Assembly (NCBI RefSeq): GCF_035565035.1 | Contig: NZ_DATMTD010000115.1 | Span: 1,123 to 65,122, forward strand | Direction of reading: 5' to 3' | DNA length: 64,000 nt | Source: Oxalicibacterium sp. | Lineage (GTDB): Bacteria; Pseudomonadota; Gammaproteobacteria; Burkholderiales; Burkholderiaceae_D | Shown here: piece after piece, positions 474-54,699 of the stretch | Numbering within the stretch: position 1 is the stretch's first letter | How the letters are laid out: the number at the start of each line of letters is the position of its first letter | Notes under the pieces: generated by a model | Told to the model about the DNA's origin: nothing | The model's database searches: none | Seen by the model: only the letters and a program-made list of their open reading frames with translations | Translations under genes and position numbers: made by a program

Positions 474-482
474 TTATCCACA
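474..482 (+). promoter_or_regulatory. Perfect DnaA box (TTATCCACA) in the dnaA-rpmH intergenic region, probably autoregulatory
   Basis: Exact 9-mer; the only perfect box seen in this intergenic region. Confidence 0.8.
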
Positions 483-1514: not shown

Positions 1515-3170
1515 ATGGATACCAAACGTACCATCCTGTGGGTTGTGTTTTCGTTTTCGCTGTTGATGCTATGGGATAGCTACAACCGCTACACCGGCAA
1601 GGAACCGTTGTTCGGCCCGTCGACCGCGCAAAAAGCACCTGCTGCGGCCGGTGCAGGCGACGCCGCCGCTCCAACCGCCAATGTGCCTGCGGCAACGACC
1701 GGCACACCAACAACCGGTGTGCCAACCGGCGATACAGCTGCCGTTAAAAACGAATCCATCGTCATCACGACCGATCTGATGAAGGCAGAAATCGATACGG
1801 CCGGCGGCGAAATCCGTCATCTGGAATTGCTGAAGCACCACGAAAGCGGTCATCCGGACAAGAACGTCGTGCTGTTCGATGCCACACCGCCACGCACCTA
1901 TCTCGGCCAGACCGGCCTGACTGGCGGCGTGTATCCAAATCACAAATCGATGTTCGTCGCACAAGCCGGTCCGCGTGACCTGGGCGATGCCAACCAGGTA
2001 CAGCTGGTCCTGACGTCGGAACAGCATGGCGTCAAGTTGATCAAGACCTTCACGTTCAAGCGCAACGATTACCGTATCGACGTCAAACATGACGTCGTCA
2101 ACAATACCGGCGCACCGATCACCCCATCGCTGTACCTGCAACTGGTGCGCGACGGTGCCAAGCTGCCGAACGAATCGATGTTCTACAGCACCTTCACGGG
2201 ACCGGCTGTGTACACCGAAGGCGATAAATTCCAGAAGGTGAAATTCGATTCGATCGAAAAGGGCAAGGACGAGCACGCGACCAAAGCCAACAACGGCTGG
2301 ATCGCCATGGTGCAGCACTACTTCGTTTCCGCCTTCATCCCGCCGGCAGATGCTCAGCGTGAAATCTACACACGCAAGCTGGGCACCGACCTGTACGCCG
2401 TCGGCACCATCCTGCCAATGGGTGCGGTCGCACCGGGTGCAACCGCATCGATGGATGCCACACTGTTCTCCGGTCCGCAGGAATCCAAACGCCTGGAAGA
2501 AGTCGCGCCCGGCTTCGAGCTGGTCAAGGATTACGGCTGGCTGACGATCATCGCACGCCCGATCTTCTGGCTGATGACACACATCCACCAGATGCTCGGC
2601 AACTGGGGCTGGACCATCATCGTGCTGACGATCGTGATCAAGCTGGCGTTCTTCCCGTTGTCCGCTGCCGGCTATCGCAGCATGGCGAAGATGAAGCTGG
2701 TCACGCCGAAAATGACCGACATCCGCACCCGCCTCAAAGGCGATCCGCAAAAGATGAATGCGGCGATGATGGAGCTGTACAAGAAAGAGAAGATCAATCC
2801 GCTCGGCGGCTGCTTCCCGATCGTGATCCAGATTCCGGTTTTCATCTCGCTGTACTGGGTGCTGCTGGCCAGCGTGGAAATGCGCAACGCGCCGTGGATC
2901 GGCTGGATTCACGATCTGGCATCGCCTGATCCTTGGTACATCCTGCCGGTGCTGATGGCGATCTCGATGTTCATCCAGACCAAGCTGAACCCGACGCCAC
3001 CGGATCCGATCCAGGCCAAGATCATGATGTTCATGCCGATTGCATTCTCGGTGATGTTCTTCTTCTTCCCGGCCGGTCTGGTGCTGTACTGGGTCGTCAA
3101 CAACATCCTGTCGATCGCACAGCAATGGGTCATTACCCGTCGTATCGGTGATGGCAAGAAGCCTGCATAA
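1515..3170 (+). CDS. yidC: Membrane protein insertase YidC
   Basis: DYGWLTII, GNWGWTIIVLT, NPLGGCFP, LYWVVNN motifs. Confidence 0.97.
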   Translation: MDTKRTILWVVFSFSLLMLWDSYNRYTGKEPLFGPSTAQKAPAAAGAGDAAAPTANVPAATTGTPTTGVPTGDTAAVKNESIVITTDLMKAEIDTAGGEIRHLELLKHHESGHPDKNVVLFDATPPRTYLGQTGLTGGVYPNHKSMFVAQAGPRDLGDANQVQLVLTSEQHGVKLIKTFTFKRNDYRIDVKHDVVNNTGAPITPSLYLQLVRDGAKLPNESMFYSTFTGPAVYTEGDKFQKVKFDSIEKGKDEHATKANNGWIAMVQHYFVSAFIPPADAQREIYTRKLGTDLYAVGTILPMGAVAPGATASMDATLFSGPQESKRLEEVAPGFELVKDYGWLTIIARPIFWLMTHIHQMLGNWGWTIIVLTIVIKLAFFPLSAAGYRSMAKMKLVTPKMTDIRTRLKGDPQKMNAAMMELYKKEKINPLGGCFPIVIQIPVFISLYWVLLASVEMRNAPWIGWIHDLASPDPWYILPVLMAISMFIQTKLNPTPPDPIQAKIMMFMPIAFSVMFFFFPAGLVLYWVVNNILSIAQQWVITRRIGDGKKPA

Positions 3171-3289: not shown

Positions 3290-7064
<3,775 letters not shown>

Positions 7065-46919: not shown

Positions 46920-48926
46920 ATGTCTCGAACGCAAAAAATAATCATGTGGAGCACGCTGGGCTTACTCGCGATTCCGATCCTCTGCATCGTGTTCCTGTTG
47001 ACGTTCGATTGGAATCGGGCGAGGCCGTGGATCAATGAGCGCGTCAGCGACGCGACAGGGCGCGTATTCGAAATCCGCGGCGATCTGAACCTGGATTGGA
47101 AACGCGCCGCGGAAGAGGATGGCTGGCACGCATGGATTCCATGGCCGCGTCCTTCTGCCAGCGACATCGTGCTGAGCAATCCTGACTGGGCCAGGACCGG
47201 GCCGCAAATGGTCACGCTCAAGCAAGTGGCGTTCTCGATCAATCCCTGGCCTTTGCTGGCAAAAAAAGTGGTATTGCATGAACTGGATGTCGACGGTCTG
47301 GCATTGGGCCTGGAAAGAACGACCGACGGTAAAAATAACTGGACCTTCAAGAAGAATGACGACGAGCCTTCAGCCTGGGCCGTTGAATTCGGCAAACTGG
47401 TAATCAGGCAGGCCGCGTTGCGCTATCTCGATCCAAACATCAAACTCGATTTGAAAGCGACCGCACAGACACTGAACGACAACAATCCAAAAGGTTATGG
47501 TCTGCAGTTCACGGCAGGCGGCAGCTATAACAACGCGCCGATCACCGGCGGCGGCAAGACCGGCGGCATTTTGTCGTTAAAGGAAAAGGGCACTGTCTTT
47601 CCGGTACAAGCCAATGTGCACATCGGCAAAAATATTATCGGCGTCGAGGGCAACGTCACCCAGCCAACTGCCGTTACTGCAATCGATCTGCATCTGACAC
47701 TGGCCGGCCCGAGCATGGCCAACCTGTATCCGCTGACCGGCGTGCTTCTGCCGGATACACCTCCTTACGCCACAAAGGGGCATCTGATCGGGCACCTGAA
47801 CGCCGACGGCAGCAACTGGAAATACGAAAAATTCACCGGCAAGGTTGGCGAAAGCGACCTGGCAGGCACGCTCGAATACATCGTCCAAAAACCTCGTCCA
47901 CTATTGCGTGGCGAGATGGTTTCCAATCAGTTGCGACTGGAAGATCTCGGTGCAGTCGTAAAAGCTGACAGTAACGCCGAAAAGAAAAATCGCGATGCAA
48001 AAGCCGTACAGCCTGATGCCAAGGCTTTGCCGGTCGAGCAGTTCACCACCGACAAATGGGACGCGCTGGATGCCGACGTCAAATTTACCGGCCGTAAAAT
48101 TGTTCGGGATGCCGCATTGCCGATCGATGATCTGGTGACCGAGATCCACATGAAGGACAAGGTATTGACGCTGACACCGCTGAACTTTGGTGTGGCAGGC
48201 GGCAACCTTACCTCCAATATCACGCTCAACGGGCAATCGAATGTCATTCAGGCGCAAATCAAAACGGCTGCGCGGCATTTGAAGATCAAGCAGCTTTTCC
48301 CGACGCTGGAAAGCATGCAGGCCAGTCTGGGCGAAGTGAATGCCGATGCATCGTTATCGGGCACCGGTAATTCGATCGCCGCAATGGTGGGTTCTGCCAA
48401 TGGTGAAGTAAAAGGTGCTGTTACAGAAGGCAGTGTCAGCAAGTTCATTCTGGAAGCAGCAGGCTTGAATGTTCCCAATGCTGTGTTTGCCAAATTATTC
48501 GGTGACAAGCAGGTGCAGTTGAATTGCCTCGCAGCCGACTTCGACGTCAAATCAGGTCTGATGCAAACGGAATATTTTGTAATGGATACCGATGACGCTG
48601 TCGTTGTTGTCGATGGCACGATCAACCTGTCGACGGAAGCAATGAATCTCGACGTGCGACCGAAGACAAAAGGGTTGCGCATCATCTCGTTGCGTTCGCC
48701 GTTGTACGTCAAGGGTACTTTCAAAAATCCGGACATCGGTCTGTACAAAGGTGCGCTTGTCGCCAAGGCGGGCGGTGCAATCGCATTGGGGGTATTGGCG
48801 CCACTCGCCGCGGTTGTTCCCTTGATTAATCCGGGACGCACCGAGGCAATCGATTGTGCGAAATTGTTGGCTGATTACAGGGAAAAGCCGAAAGCACCTC
48901 CGCCCGGCCAAAAAAAGGTTGATTGA
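46920..48926 (+). CDS. AsmA family protein (YhjG-like)
   Basis: N-terminal TM, FDWNRARPWIN, SMANLYPLTGVLLPDTPPY, SLRSPLYVKGTF..P. Confidence 0.85.
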   Translation: MSRTQKIIMWSTLGLLAIPILCIVFLLTFDWNRARPWINERVSDATGRVFEIRGDLNLDWKRAAEEDGWHAWIPWPRPSASDIVLSNPDWARTGPQMVTLKQVAFSINPWPLLAKKVVLHELDVDGLALGLERTTDGKNNWTFKKNDDEPSAWAVEFGKLVIRQAALRYLDPNIKLDLKATAQTLNDNNPKGYGLQFTAGGSYNNAPITGGGKTGGILSLKEKGTVFPVQANVHIGKNIIGVEGNVTQPTAVTAIDLHLTLAGPSMANLYPLTGVLLPDTPPYATKGHLIGHLNADGSNWKYEKFTGKVGESDLAGTLEYIVQKPRPLLRGEMVSNQLRLEDLGAVVKADSNAEKKNRDAKAVQPDAKALPVEQFTTDKWDALDADVKFTGRKIVRDAALPIDDLVTEIHMKDKVLTLTPLNFGVAGGNLTSNITLNGQSNVIQAQIKTAARHLKIKQLFPTLESMQASLGEVNADASLSGTGNSIAAMVGSANGEVKGAVTEGSVSKFILEAAGLNVPNAVFAKLFGDKQVQLNCLAADFDVKSGLMQTEYFVMDTDDAVVVVDGTINLSTEAMNLDVRPKTKGLRIISLRSPLYVKGTFKNPDIGLYKGALVAKAGGAIALGVLAPLAAVVPLINPGRTEAIDCAKLLADYREKPKAPPPGQKKVD

Positions 48927-48939
48927 AGTCGTGTCATCG

Positions 48940-48966
48940 AGCCTGCATGAAAATGCGGGCTTTTTT
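48940..48966 (+). terminator. Intrinsic terminator
   Basis: AGCCTGCAT-gaaa-ATGCGGGCT plus T-tract. Confidence 0.85.
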
Positions 48967-49259
48967 GTCTGTACCTAATTTGTAGTGTTCACAGTGTGTA
49001 AGGCTGAGTCAAAACAATTTTTGGTTGAGGAAACGATCCAGGCAACTCTGGTCGAGTTAATCGGAGCATCCCTCACCAAGATCGACGATTCGATTATGAC
49101 GTGGCTGTGGGGCCTTCTAATGGCGAGGTTCGAGCTTTAGTGCGCTCAAGGTCCTTCAACAAGACGTTGTTCGAGCAGTATTCTGAATATCGGTACGGAA
49201 TGTATAACGAGGGAAGTGTCTGATTAAGTTGCGTCGATTCACATCACGTCAGATTTCCT

Positions 49260-49555
49260 GGAAATGAAATTTAATGGATGGTTTTCAGTTCTTCTTTTTC
49301 TGGTTTGGGGGTTTTGATGGGGTTCTGGTTTTAAATTAAATTGGTTGTATATATGTTTAGTAGTAATAGTTAACGTAGGGTGTTTTCTGTGGATAACCCT
49401 GTAAACAGTTTTTAAATCAGTTATTTACGCTTGGGATAAAACCTGCATAAGCAGTGTATTGAGCAGGGATGGATTCTGCATAAGATCAAGACTTCTCTTT
49501 TCCACATCGTTATCCACAAACTATCCAGTGTTTTTCCCGTGCCTTATCCACAGCC
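49260..49555. other. Probable chromosomal replication origin oriC
   Basis: AT/GT-rich stretch, TAG-TAG-TAA-TAG trios (49358-49369), consensus DnaA boxes at 49388-49396, 49498-49506, 49510-49518, 49544-49552, IHF site 49415-49427, phased degenerate boxes; parS sites and mnmG nearby. Confidence 0.85.
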
Positions 49556-49624
49556 TGAATCAGTAACATTTGCGACGTCATGGTAATCTCATCGGCCAGA
49601 TAATCAACGGCCTGAGGGATCCAG

Positions 49625-51136
49625 ATGCGCCTTCCGATAATTGGACATTATATAAATGGTGGACGTGTCGATTCCGCTGATGGCGATCGTCAACCGGTTT
49701 TCAATCCCGCGACAGGTGAAGTCGGTGCGGAGGTACTCGTCGGTAACGAAGCCGACGTAGAAACCGCTGTTGCAGCCGCCAAAGCTGCGGCCCCGGCCTG
49801 GGCAGCAACGGCTCCGTTGAAACGGGCGCGCATCCTGTTCAGGTTCAAGGATCTGATCGAACGCCATCATGATGATCTTGCCGCGGCCATTACCCGGGAA
49901 CATGGCAAGATCTTTTCAGACGCAAAAGGCGAAGTGACGCGCGGACTGGAAGTGGTTGAATTCGCTTGCGGCATCCCGCAGTTATTAAAAACACAATTTA
50001 CTGACAATATCGGTGGAGGCATCGATAACTGGAACCTGCGTCAACCGCTTGGCGTCACCGCCGGCATTACGCCGTTCAATTTTCCGTTCATGGTGCCGAT
50101 GTGGATGGCACCGGTTGCACTGGCGACGGGAAATACGTTTATTCTGAAACCGTCGGAGCGCGACCCTTCCCCTTCGCTGATGGTGGCGGAGCTATTGCAC
50201 GAAGCCGGTTTGCCTGATGGGGTATTCAATGTATTGCAGGGCGGCAAAAATGTAGTCAATGCCTTGCTGCGGAATCCGGATGTGCGTGCGGTTTCCTTTG
50301 TCGGCTCGACGCCAATTGCCGAACATGTCTATACCGCCGGTACCAGCCGCATGGGTCCCTATCCACTCAGAGTACAGGCACTCGGCGGAGCGAAGAACCA
50401 CTTGGTCGTGATGCCGGATGCAAACTTGGAGCAGGCAGTCGATGCATTGATGGGCGCGGCATACGGGTCGGCTGGCGAACGCTGCATGGCGGTTTCAGTT
50501 GCGGTGGCCGTCGGCAGTGTGGCGGACAAGCTGATCGACGCCTTGATTCCGCGTGTGCAATTACTCAAGGTTAAAAATGGCATGGATCCGGACGCTGAAA
50601 TGGGCCCGGTCGTCACTGCCGAGCACAAAGCAAAAATCGAAGCCTACATCGAAGCTGGTGTAAAAGCAGGCGCAAAGCTGCTGGTAGATGGGCGCGGACT
50701 GAAAGTGGGTGGCCACGACCAAGGTTTCTTTCTGGGGGGATGCCTGTTCGATCATGTGACTCCAGACATGACGATTTACAGGGAAGAAATCTTCGGACCG
50801 GTTCTGTGCATCGTTCGTGTACCCGACTTTGCTGCTGCCATTGATCTGATTAACGGCCATGAATTTGGAAACGGGGTTTCGTTATTCACATCGGATGGCA
50901 ATACCGCCCGCGAGTTTTCCCGCCGGATCGAAGTCGGGATGGTCGGAATCAATGTCCCTATTCCGGTACCGATGGCATGGCACTCGTTCGGTGGTTGGAA
51001 ACGCTCCATGTTCGGTGACCTCCATGCTTACGGCGAAGAGGGCATCCGGTTTTATACGCGTTATAAATCAATCATGCAGCGCTGGCCGGAAACAATCGAT
51101 AAAGGCCCCGAGTTTTCGATGCCGGTAAGCAAATAA
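49625..51136 (+). CDS. mmsA: CoA-acylating methylmalonate-semialdehyde dehydrogenase
   Basis: [62 protein letters not shown]. Confidence 0.9.
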
Positions 51137-51142
51137 GTTCAA

Positions 51143-51158
51143 TGTTTCACGTGAAACG
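51143..51158. other. parS centromere site
   Basis: TGTTTCACGTGAAACG, 15/16 to the canonical palindrome. Confidence 0.9.
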
Positions 51159-51974: not shown

Positions 51975-51990
51975 TGTTTCACGTGAAACA
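51975..51990. other. parS centromere site
   Basis: Perfect TGTTTCACGTGAAACA. Confidence 0.93.
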
Positions 51991-52102
51991 TCCCGCGCTT
52001 GATTGTTGCGGGCCTGCTCGGCAACGGGCGAAATAAAATCAAAAAGACTTTATAATCTCGCCTCTGCCTAACTGTCTCACCTAAGTCTCATTGAGGCGCA
52101 CC

Positions 52103-54040
52103 ATGATTTTTCCTGACAAATTTGATGTGATCGTTGTCGGCGGCGGCCATGCCGGAACCGAAGCTGCACTGGCGTCTGCCCGCATGGGACAGGCGACGCT
52201 GCTGCTTACGCACAATATTGAAACGCTGGGCCAGATGTCCTGCAACCCGTCGATTGGCGGGATCGGCAAAGGCCACCTGGTCAAGGAAGTCGATGCCATG
52301 GGTGGCGCAATGGCGATTGCCACTGATGAAGCAGGTATCCAGTTCCGCATCCTGAACTCCTCCAAAGGCCCGGCCGTTCGTGCCACGCGCGCGCAAGCCG
52401 ATCGTATCCTTTACAAACAAGCGATCCGTTCGCGCCTGGAAAATCAGCCGAATCTTTGGCTGTTCCAGCAAGCAGTCGACGATCTGCTGGTCGAAGGCGA
52501 TCGTGTGGTCGGCGCAGTTACGCAAGTTGGTATCAAGTTCATGGCGAGAGCTGTGGTGCTGACGGCAGGTACTTTTCTCGACGGGAAGATTCACGTCGGC
52601 ATGAATAATTACTCGGCGGGTCGTGCCGGCGATCCACCTGCAGTTTCGCTTTCTGCGCGCCTGAAGGAATTGAAGCTGCCGCAGGGCCGATTGAAAACCG
52701 GTACGCCGCCGCGTATCGATGGCCGCACGATCGATTTCTCGGTGATGGAAGAACAGCCGGGCGATCTCGATCCGATCCCGGTGTTTTCCGTCATGGGCTC
52801 GGCCGCGATGCATCCAAAACAGATGCCTTGCTGGATCACGCACACGAACGAACAAACGCACGACATTATCCGCGGCGGTCTGGATCGCAGTCCGATGTAC
52901 ACCGGCGTGATTGAAGGCGTCGGTCCGCGGTACTGCCCATCCATCGAGGACAAGATCCATCGTTTCGCCAGCAAGAACTCGCACCAGATCTTCCTTGAGC
53001 CGGAAGGCCTGACCACGAACGAGTTTTATCCGAACGGGATTTCCACCAGCCTGCCATTCGATGTGCAGTTAAACCTCGTGCGTTCGATGCGTGGCCTGGA
53101 AAATGCGCATATCCTGCGTCCCGGTTATGCAATTGAATACGACTACTTCGATCCGCGTGGCCTGAAGGCATCGCTGGAAACCAAGGTCATCCAGGGACTG
53201 TTTTTCGCCGGCCAGATCAACGGTACCACCGGTTATGAAGAGGCCGCCGCACAAGGCATGCTGGCCGGACTCAACGCTGCATTGCAGACGCAAGGTCGGG
53301 AGGCATGGACGCCACGCCGCGACGAAGCCTACCTCGGCGTGCTGGTCGATGACCTGATCACCAAGGGTGTGCTGGAGCCATATCGCATGTTTACCAGCCG
53401 GGCCGAATATCGTTTAAGCCTGCGTGAAGACAACGCCGATATGCGCCTGACGGAAATCGGTCGTGAACTCGGTTGTGTCGGCGATGCGCAATGGACGGCA
53501 TTCGAAACCAAGCGAGAAGCGGTTGCGCGCGAGCTGGAACGCCTGCGTTCCACTTGGGTCAATCCCCGAATTTTGGCTCAAGCTGAGGCCGAACGCGTGT
53601 TGGGTAAAGGCATTGAGCGAGAGTATGCACTCGCAGACTTACTCAGTCGCCCGAATGTCAGCTATGCCAGTCTGATGACGTTGAAGGGCGCCGACGGCCA
53701 GGATCTGGGCGGCCCGGGCGTCTCGGGAGACGCGGTGCGCGAGCAGGTCGAGATCCAGTTGAAGTACGCCGGGTATATCGGTCGCCAGGCAAAGGAAGTC
53801 GAACGTCACGATTATTACGAGAACCTGAAATTGCCAGGGGCCTTTGACTACATGGAGGTCAAGGGCCTGTCGTTCGAAGTGCGGCAGAAATTGTGCAAGC
53901 ACAAGCCTGAAACCTTGGGACAGGCATCGCGCATTTCGGGCGTCACGCCGGCTGCAATCTCGTTGTTGCTGGTGCACCTGAAGAAGGGCGGCTTCAAGGA
54001 ATTTGCTACGGTGCCGCCGGCATCCGAAGCGGCAGCATGA
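52103..54040 (+). CDS. mnmG: tRNA uridine modification enzyme MnmG/GidA
   Basis: [53 protein letters not shown]. Confidence 0.98.
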
Positions 54041-54699
54041 AGTCCTTTGATCGAGCGGCGTTGACCGCCCAACTGACTGATGGCGCGCGCGCCTTGTCTG
54101 TTTCGTTGAGCGAAGCGCAATGTGACAAGCTGATCGACTATCTGGCCTTGATGCTCAAGTGGAACGCGGTTTACAACCTGACCGCCGTACGCGACCCATC
54201 GCAGATGGTGGTGCAGCATTTGCTGGACTCCCTGGCGGCAGTCACGGCATTTGACGGTGCGCGGTTTGTGCTTGACGTTGGTGCCGGCGGTGGCTTGCCT
54301 GGAATCGTGCTGGCGATCTGGGCCGAAGAAGCGCAACCCGAACTTCGATTGACCATGATCGATACGGTGCACAAGAAGACCGCGTTCCTGACGCAGGTGA
54401 AAGCAGAGCTTGATCTGCATAATGTCAGCGTGCAAACCGGTCGCGTCGAACAGTGGCAGGCACCGCAAATGTTTGACGTGATTACTTCGCGCGCGTTTGC
54501 GGAGCTCAATGATTTCGTTACATGGTCGCAGCACCTGCTGGATGAACGTGGACGTTTTATCGCGCTCAAGGGCGTGGCGCCGGGTGAAGAGGCGGGGCGT
54601 CTGGCCGAAGGCTGGCGCGTCAGCGAAATACTTCAGCTCCATGTGCCGACATTGAATGCGGAACGCCATCTGGTTTTTATCGAAAGGGAGGCAGCATGA
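54037..54699 (+). CDS. rsmG: 16S rRNA m7G methyltransferase RsmG/GidB
   Basis: [29 protein letters not shown]. Confidence 0.96.

Follow-up and report, generated by a model that had tools for sequence, protein, structure and literature searches.

The locus analyzed here raises two questions: does replication of this Oxalicibacterium chromosome start in a 700-bp non-coding gap between an AsmA-like gene on the left and mmsA on the right, and, if so, have two initiation designs been joined there in one origin? A preliminary description of the DNA had answered both in the affirmative, reading an E. coli arrangement (an R1-type DnaA box, an IHF site, and two opposed arrays of phased boxes) and a B. 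subtilis arrangement (box, spacer, DnaA-trios, and AT-rich cluster) in the same sequence. We examined the window, by which we mean the whole stretch of 64,000 nucleotides that contains the locus, together with the 2.8-Mb draft genome from which it comes (123 contigs, 56.6% G+C) and the genomes of relatives. The candidate unit at 49330–49552 is very probably the single chromosomal oriC, built on the same plan as the oriC of E. coli, and the only trait by which it stands out is how clean its run of trios is.

The candidate origin unit and its genomic setting

The features of the locus are summarized in Table 1. When the sequence was read again, all motifs of the preliminary description were found where it had placed them, and the 9-mers of the left array do stand exactly 11 bp apart throughout, while those of the right array follow at a pitch of 12, 11, 11, and 12 bp.

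Table 1. Features of the candidate origin unit and its flanks in window coordinates, with the information content of aligned positions among congeners
Feature	Position	Strand	Description	Bits per column
AsmA-like gene, left flank	46920–48926	+	668 aa, from the ORF list; runs toward the origin	
Terminator-like hairpin	48939–48968	+	with T run, 3' of the AsmA-like gene	
Left non-coding spacer	48969–49324	none	~400 nt, peculiar to this genome	
AT-rich unwinding element (DUE)	49330–49357		86% A+T; genus consensus TTTTAAnTTAATTGTTTaTATATATGtt	1.64
DnaA-trios	49358–49369	+	four, 5'-TAG TAG TAA TAG-3', on the strand that carries TGTGGATAA at R1	1.98
Trio–R1 interval	49370–49387		18 bp; conserved TTAAC, variable stretch, TTTTC	1.89 (TTAAC)
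R1-type perfect DnaA box	49388–49396	−	TGTGGATAA on plus, TTATCCACA on minus	1.97
IHF site	49415–49427	+	AATCAGttatTTA (AATCAGTTATTTA)	1.84 and 1.81 (halves); 0.67 (central NNNN)
Left array	49431–49483	−	five degenerate boxes oriented like R1; starts 49431, 49442, 49453, 49464, 49475	0.99–1.85 (ten boxes of both arrays)
Right array	49498–49552	+	five boxes in opposite orientation; starts 49498, 49510, 49521, 49532, 49544	0.99–1.85 (ten boxes of both arrays)
R1–IHF gap, mid gap, most inter-box dinucleotides				0.34–0.93
mmsA, right flank	49625–51136	+	methylmalonate-semialdehyde dehydrogenase (TIGR01722, 654 bits); away from the origin	
parS-like site	51143–51158		one mismatch; gap beside the TauE-like gene	
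parS site	51975–51990		perfect, TGTTTCACGTGAAACA; gap beside the TauE-like gene	
mnmG (gidA) and rsmG (gidB)	52091–54699	+	TIGR00136, 897 bits; TIGR00138, 167 bits; mnmG at 52091–54040	

No 40-mer duplex of the 64-kb window is less stable than the one that starts at 49329 and covers the DUE and the trios (dG of −39.5 against a mean of −58.9 with SD 4.0, which is 4.8 SD above the mean). The trios themselves form an uninterrupted run of four, at least three consecutive NAN trios being required of such a run, and are separated from R1 by an interval of ~46% G+C, which is thus hardly GC-rich. Since the length of this interval is a multiple of three, the run is in phase with R1; an isolated TAG occurs in the same phase at 49376–49378, 9 bp from R1. 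No second DnaA box was seen between R1 and the trios, where no 9-mer exceeded four of nine matches when inspected by eye. On the other side of R1, the conserved C of the IHF site falls at 49418, exactly 21 nt after the end of R1 at 49396. Relatives carry AATCAAnnACTTG at this site, a perfect match to the consensus WATCAANNNNTTR, and both ihfA and ihfB are encoded in the genome with scores above the curated cut-offs.

Compared with the DnaA-box consensus, the 9-mers of the left array match at 7, 6, 5, 4, and 7 of nine positions and those of the right array at 8, 9, 6, 5, and 9, two of the latter being perfect. The genus consensus of the left array reads anaggATAA, CCTGCATAA, GGTGTAtnn, naaGgATaG, and tcTGcATAA, and that of the right array tTtTcCAca, TTATCCACA, CTATCCACg, TTttnCAgA, and TTATcCACA. 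Judged from this genome alone, the third and fourth left boxes (L3, agtgtattg, and L4, cagggatgg) are not convincing; we accept them as boxes because GTGTAT and GGATAG are conserved as their cores among relatives. A repeat search found no family of 13-mer repeats in the unit, and GATC occurs in it once, at 49484.

The region is present in 22 of 24 genomes of the genus. An alignment of 27 copies from these 22 congeners has almost no indels within the unit (a few copies have a single-base indel), and in it the boxes, trios, and IHF site are conserved and the gaps between the elements variable. The inter-box gaps of both arrays vary apart from two conserved dinucleotides, the exception in the left array being an AT between L4 and L5. 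The DnaA-trios named in the preliminary description are a canonical run between the AT tract and R1 and are essentially invariant in the 22 species. A second alignment, of 26 sequences from several genera, is again nearly free of indels, and the same layout was found in Herbaspirillum, Noviherbaspirillum, Actimicrobium, Paucimonas, Lacisediminimonas, and several uncultured lineages; the trios are retained in other Oxalobacteraceae genera, and the IHF site has its conserved C 21 nt after R1 in all aligned relatives. Of 401 genomes from 177 genera sampled in the order, 174 genomes and 107 genera gave a match, mostly near full length, to a profile built from the 26-sequence alignment.

Within its own genome, the box cluster and the phased arrays are genome-wide outliers. 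Perfect TTATCCACA boxes number 16, three of which lie within 157 bp here, and boxes with at most one mismatch number 350 (0.125 per kb), with four within 157 bp here. Five 11-bp-phased windows scoring at least 29/45 were found at three loci in 5.6 million positions, namely this unit and two versions of the dnaA–dnaN spacer (contigs C115 and C4), and the pattern of the right array reached 33/45 or more only at this locus in 5.6 million positions. The origin profile gave one match over the whole genome, to this unit, and no second or relic copy of the origin was detected by repeat search in the window, by the whole-genome profile, or by BLAST with the spacer.

The position of the unit also agrees with the switch in GC skew of a congener with a complete 3.78-Mb genome (G001), in which negative skew extends from 0.7 to 2.49 Mb and the rest of the chromosome has positive skew. 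The sign turns from negative to positive at 2.485–2.500 Mb, the origin copies lie at 2,499,657–2,500,946, and the terminus is ~1.8 Mb from the origin locus. The skew switch expected of an origin was found at the orthologous locus; on the contig studied here the cumulative minimum is at ~41–43 kb, 6–8 kb to the left of the unit, with skew near zero in between and strongly positive from ~47.9 kb. To the right of the unit, two parS sites, against a chance expectation of 0.03, are located at a distance of 1.6–2.4 kb between mmsA and mnmG, where a TauE-like gene also lies; mnmG and rsmG are classic origin-linked genes. The skew switch in G001, the linkage to parS and mnmG, the box cluster, and the conservation of the unit all support the view that this locus is oriC.

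The left flank differs from that of relatives. The AsmA-like gene has a weak NCBIfam AsmA match (E 1.5e-10), under the curated cut-off. At the position of the left spacer, relatives have a minus-strand mtnN, the gene for MTA/SAH nucleosidase, and often a second, inverted origin copy; in four single-copy congeners, mtnN lies between asmA and the DUE. No mtnN gene or remnant was found in the spacer or anywhere in this assembly, BLAST of the spacer against the loci of relatives and the rest of the genome gave no match, and neither the left spacer nor the DNA between the origin copies of relatives matched a structured RNA in Rfam at E up to 1. On the right, TGGTAATCT at 49581–49589 precedes mmsA, and in relatives it is kept in no origin copies other than those nearest mmsA. 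This sequence, which lies immediately beyond the last DnaA box, may serve mmsA as an extended −10 element, and from this proximity DnaA might influence mmsA transcription; a scan of 48850–49700 for the sigma-70 consensus promoter gave no match, so the assignment as a −10 element is only a guess.

Relation to known origins and a proposed route of unwinding

The annotated oriC of E. coli K-12 (NC_000913.3, 3925744–3925975) was aligned with the unit on R1 without gaps. The order of DUE, reverse R1, IHF site, reverse phased weak boxes, and forward phased boxes is common to both, the IHF cores coincide (TTTTAAGATCAAC against TTTTTAAATCAGT), and in each the conserved C follows R1 by 21 nt. The left boxes are found at +43, +54, +65, +76, and +87 from R1, and R5M of E. 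coli at +55. Judging by the E. coli sequence, we assign tau2, I1, and I2 to its sites at +66, +77, and +88; the last four left boxes here lie within 1 bp of R5M and these three sites. The forward boxes start at +110, compared with +106 for R2, and the last is at +156, compared with +180 for R4, the right half being ~24 bp shorter than in E. coli and continuous. Both origins have 11 boxes in total and are linked to mnmG–rsmG. Given the agreement of these offsets, orientation, box count (11), and phasing match E. coli, and the E. coli-like R1, IHF site, and opposed phased arrays of the preliminary description are borne out. Unlike E. coli, the unit has no 13-mer repeats and a single GATC, the presence of 13-mers and of more GATC being traits of the enterobacterial subtype and not part of the layout; with one GATC only, we expect no Dam/SeqA-style control. 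It also differs in the clean TAG TAG TAA TAG run 18 bp from R1 and in being inverted relative to mnmG, which is on the right-array side, with mmsA and the TauE-like gene in between.

A recent prediction study aligned the origins of E. coli, both origins of P. aeruginosa, ~300 Halomonadaceae origins, and that of B. subtilis on R1, and described DUE, DnaA-trio, R1, IHF, L-DOR, and M/R-DOR as shared by the E. coli, Pseudomonas, and Halomonadaceae origins, with the elements from the DUE to the IHF site forming the left part common to the aligned origins and the two arrays following it (Weigel 2025 preprint, doi 10.1101/2025.08.05.668638). All these elements are found both in the unit and in the mnmG-linked oriC2 of P. 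aeruginosa and Halomonadaceae, which lies tens of kb from dnaA and in which five or six reverse boxes make up the L-DOR and forward boxes the M/R-DOR. The position of the conserved C of the IHF site 21 bp after R1, described as a rule of the Gammaproteobacteria (Weigel 2025, doi 10.1101/2025.08.05.668638), holds here as well. The R1-type reverse box is likewise about two helical turns from the DUE, the trio run ending 18 bp before R1, and the reverse left and forward right arrays have their boxes 2–3 bp apart (five and five, at 11–12 bp pitch). The genomes of P. aeruginosa and Halomonadaceae usually contain a complete second origin in the region preceding dnaA; in the genome studied here, that region has one perfect box only and no further match to the profile. 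Their oriC2 also has the opposite orientation relative to mnmG. The gene on the DUE side is reported always to point away from the origin (Weigel 2025, doi 10.1101/2025.08.05.668638), whereas the AsmA-like gene, unlike its counterpart in E. coli, points toward the DUE and is followed by the terminator. Relatives conform to this rule through the minus-strand mtnN that is absent from this genome.

From this layout we infer the following course of initiation. DnaA would bind to the three perfect boxes, of which R1 starts at 49388 and the two of the right array start at 49510 and 49544, after which ATP-DnaA would fill the phased weak boxes to give two facing oligomers, on 49431–49483 and 49498–49552. 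IHF at 49415–49427 would bend the R1-to-L1 interval, so that the left oligomer and the R1-bound DnaA could reach the AT tract. The ATPase domains of the DnaA oligomer would capture the strand 5'-TAG TAG TAA TAG-3' (49358–49369) and keep 49330–49369 open, and helicases would be loaded at the opened DNA, with the right array helping to load the second one.

A possible but rather doubtful alternative, with the same locus and function, is that DnaA forms a continuous filament from R1 over the 18-bp interval onto the trios, by the route of the basal unwinding system, and that the main role of IHF and the arrays is to time initiation and load helicases and not to loop the left oligomer back onto the single strand. 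Such a filament would fit the phase that the trio run and the isolated TAG share with R1, and when genera are compared, conservation within the unit is highest at the trios and the TTAAC next to them. However, the intervening TTA, ACG, GGT, GTT, and TTC are without the central A that defines trios (PMC8287927), and the IHF site stands in the exact register that supports looping in E. coli. Combining an E. coli-type layout with a textbook trio run, this origin is a natural substrate for comparing the loop-back model, which we prefer, with the continuous-filament model.

The incC basal unwinding system of B. subtilis (Richardson 2016/2019; Pelliciari 2021, 2023) is similar to the unit in having a box, a spacer, the commonest trios (3'-GAT-5'), and an AT tract in the same strand relationship. 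The B. subtilis geometry of the preliminary description was accordingly recovered as far as the order of the elements is concerned, but not in its particulars: there is a single box where B. subtilis has a tandem pair, and the spacer has 18 bp and ~46% G+C. In the published search, the spacer was at most 16 bp, with 13 bp the commonest length, and the tandem box pair, optional in the definition, occurred in 57% of predictions (Pelliciari 2021, PMC8287927). The 18 bp to the four-trio run exceed this limit and are longer than in characterised cases. The unit further differs from incC in the IHF site and the pair of opposed arrays that follow downstream and in not being located beside dnaA.

It is improbable that this is a genuinely hybrid origin, in which B. 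subtilis box–spacer–trio unwinding and E. coli R1–IHF–array looping were joined in one lineage. The trio run is indeed far more canonical than that of E. coli, whose box–spacer–trio score is relatively weak (Pelliciari 2021, PMC8287927), and every E. coli-type element is present in addition. However, trios beside an R1-type box have been assigned to most origins, including those of E. coli, Pseudomonas, and Halomonadaceae with IHF and two arrays (Weigel 2025, doi 10.1101/2025.08.05.668638), box–spacer–trio modules are predicted in 1755 of 2070 species, or 85% (Pelliciari 2021, PMC8287927), the unit itself occurs in 107 of the 177 genera sampled in the order, and the tandem boxes and short spacer specific to B. 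subtilis are missing. The contrast drawn in the preliminary description between E. coli 13-mers and B. subtilis trios has been dropped in recent literature, and its two separate designs turn out to be a layout that is already standard. As trios are standard in E. coli-type origins and the profile is widespread in the order, we regard this as an ordinary betaproteobacterial origin and not as a one-off combination.

On this reading, the locus fixes the origin of the draft genome, and the full E. coli-type plan, including the IHF register and the box phasing, would extend through much of the Betaproteobacteria. We found no experimentally mapped betaproteobacterial origin in the literature searched, and the origin of Burkholderia cenocepacia is still called uncertain.

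The dnaA–dnaN spacer and other clusters of DnaA boxes

The dnaA gene is located ~50 kb to the left of the unit, just beyond the edge of the window. A lone perfect DnaA box upstream of it (window 474–482, C115:1596) is probably autoregulatory, and neither the perfect-box search nor the origin profile revealed an origin-like unit upstream of dnaA. The dnaA–dnaN spacer (C115:20–75, left of the window, and C4:294–350) carries five DnaA boxes in the same orientation at 11–12 bp pitch, which might be left over from an origin once linked to dnaA or might serve in titration or autoregulation. That replication starts at this phased array, and that the locus at 49330–49552 is a DnaA-binding regulatory or titration site or a retired origin, is most unlikely: although no phased array elsewhere in the genome has a comparable score and the authors of the Herbaspirillum genome paper guessed that the origin was close to dnaA, the skew of G001 is strongly negative for 60 kb rightward of dnaA (at 2.432 Mb, 67 kb left of the origin locus) and flips at this locus, the part of the spacer that can be read before the contig ends shows neither an AT tract nor trios, an IHF site, or an opposed array, and the parS sites and mnmG adjoin this locus instead.

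Contigs C4 (1–368) and C115 (1–371) both carry the 3' end of dnaA and the spacer, with 85% identity. As the identity is only 85%, the bin probably holds a piece from a second, related population (dnaN–gyrB, contig C4). In addition, a three-box cluster, TTATCCACAaagTTATCCACAagattTGTGGATAG, with two direct boxes and one inverted, was identified near contig ends (C28:3577–3611 and C100:133–165). In G001 this cluster is present in three tandem copies with a pitch of ~385 bp (2,539,712–2,540,521), 40 kb to the right of the origin; it resembles the DARS-type DnaA-reactivating sites of E. coli.

Origin units in relatives

The single origin of this genome overturns nothing, and the more surprising result, which is also the more interesting lead, is that multi-copy origin units are the majority state among relatives. 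Eight congeners (L014, which is G001, L005, L009, L010, L012, L013, L016, and L022) have two complete units as inverted repeats between asmA and mmsA, with the DUE ends inward, and two (L019 and L021) have tandem pairs. The two arms of G001 (L014:434–729 and 1442–1737) are 296 nt each, 98% identical, and 712 nt apart. Copies within one congener genome are 95–99% identical, whereas between G016 and G024, the one pair of sister species that allows this comparison, copies are 92–94% identical, and the outer flanks of paired copies are position-specific. The higher identity within than between genomes, together with the position-specific flanks, suggests gene conversion between the paired copies.

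In the family, 130 of 151 sampled genomes matched the origin profile at E up to 1e-10. One unit was found in 29 of them, two in 82, and three in 19, so that 101 of the 130 (78%) are multi-copy. Each of the units in these genomes has a DUE, trios, R1, an IHF site, and both arrays, and they are arranged in tandem or inverted, a few hundred bp apart. Assembly error is no explanation, as the multi-copy state is also seen in single-contig genomes. Tentatively, the origin unit might be a cassette that is copied and kept, in which case the single unit of this genome would be a reduced state. If adjacent units all fire, or if the extra units time initiation by holding DnaA, this would be an organization of bacterial origins that we have not found described; the literature searched on Oxalobacteraceae origins and on duplicated origin units yielded nothing relevant, and multiple origins are not mentioned in the text of DoriC 10. 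A pair of a different arrangement from those of Oxalicibacterium was observed in Paucimonas sp. L034, where units at 2741–2966 (+) and 5528–5756 (−) flank mmsA with their right-array ends inward.
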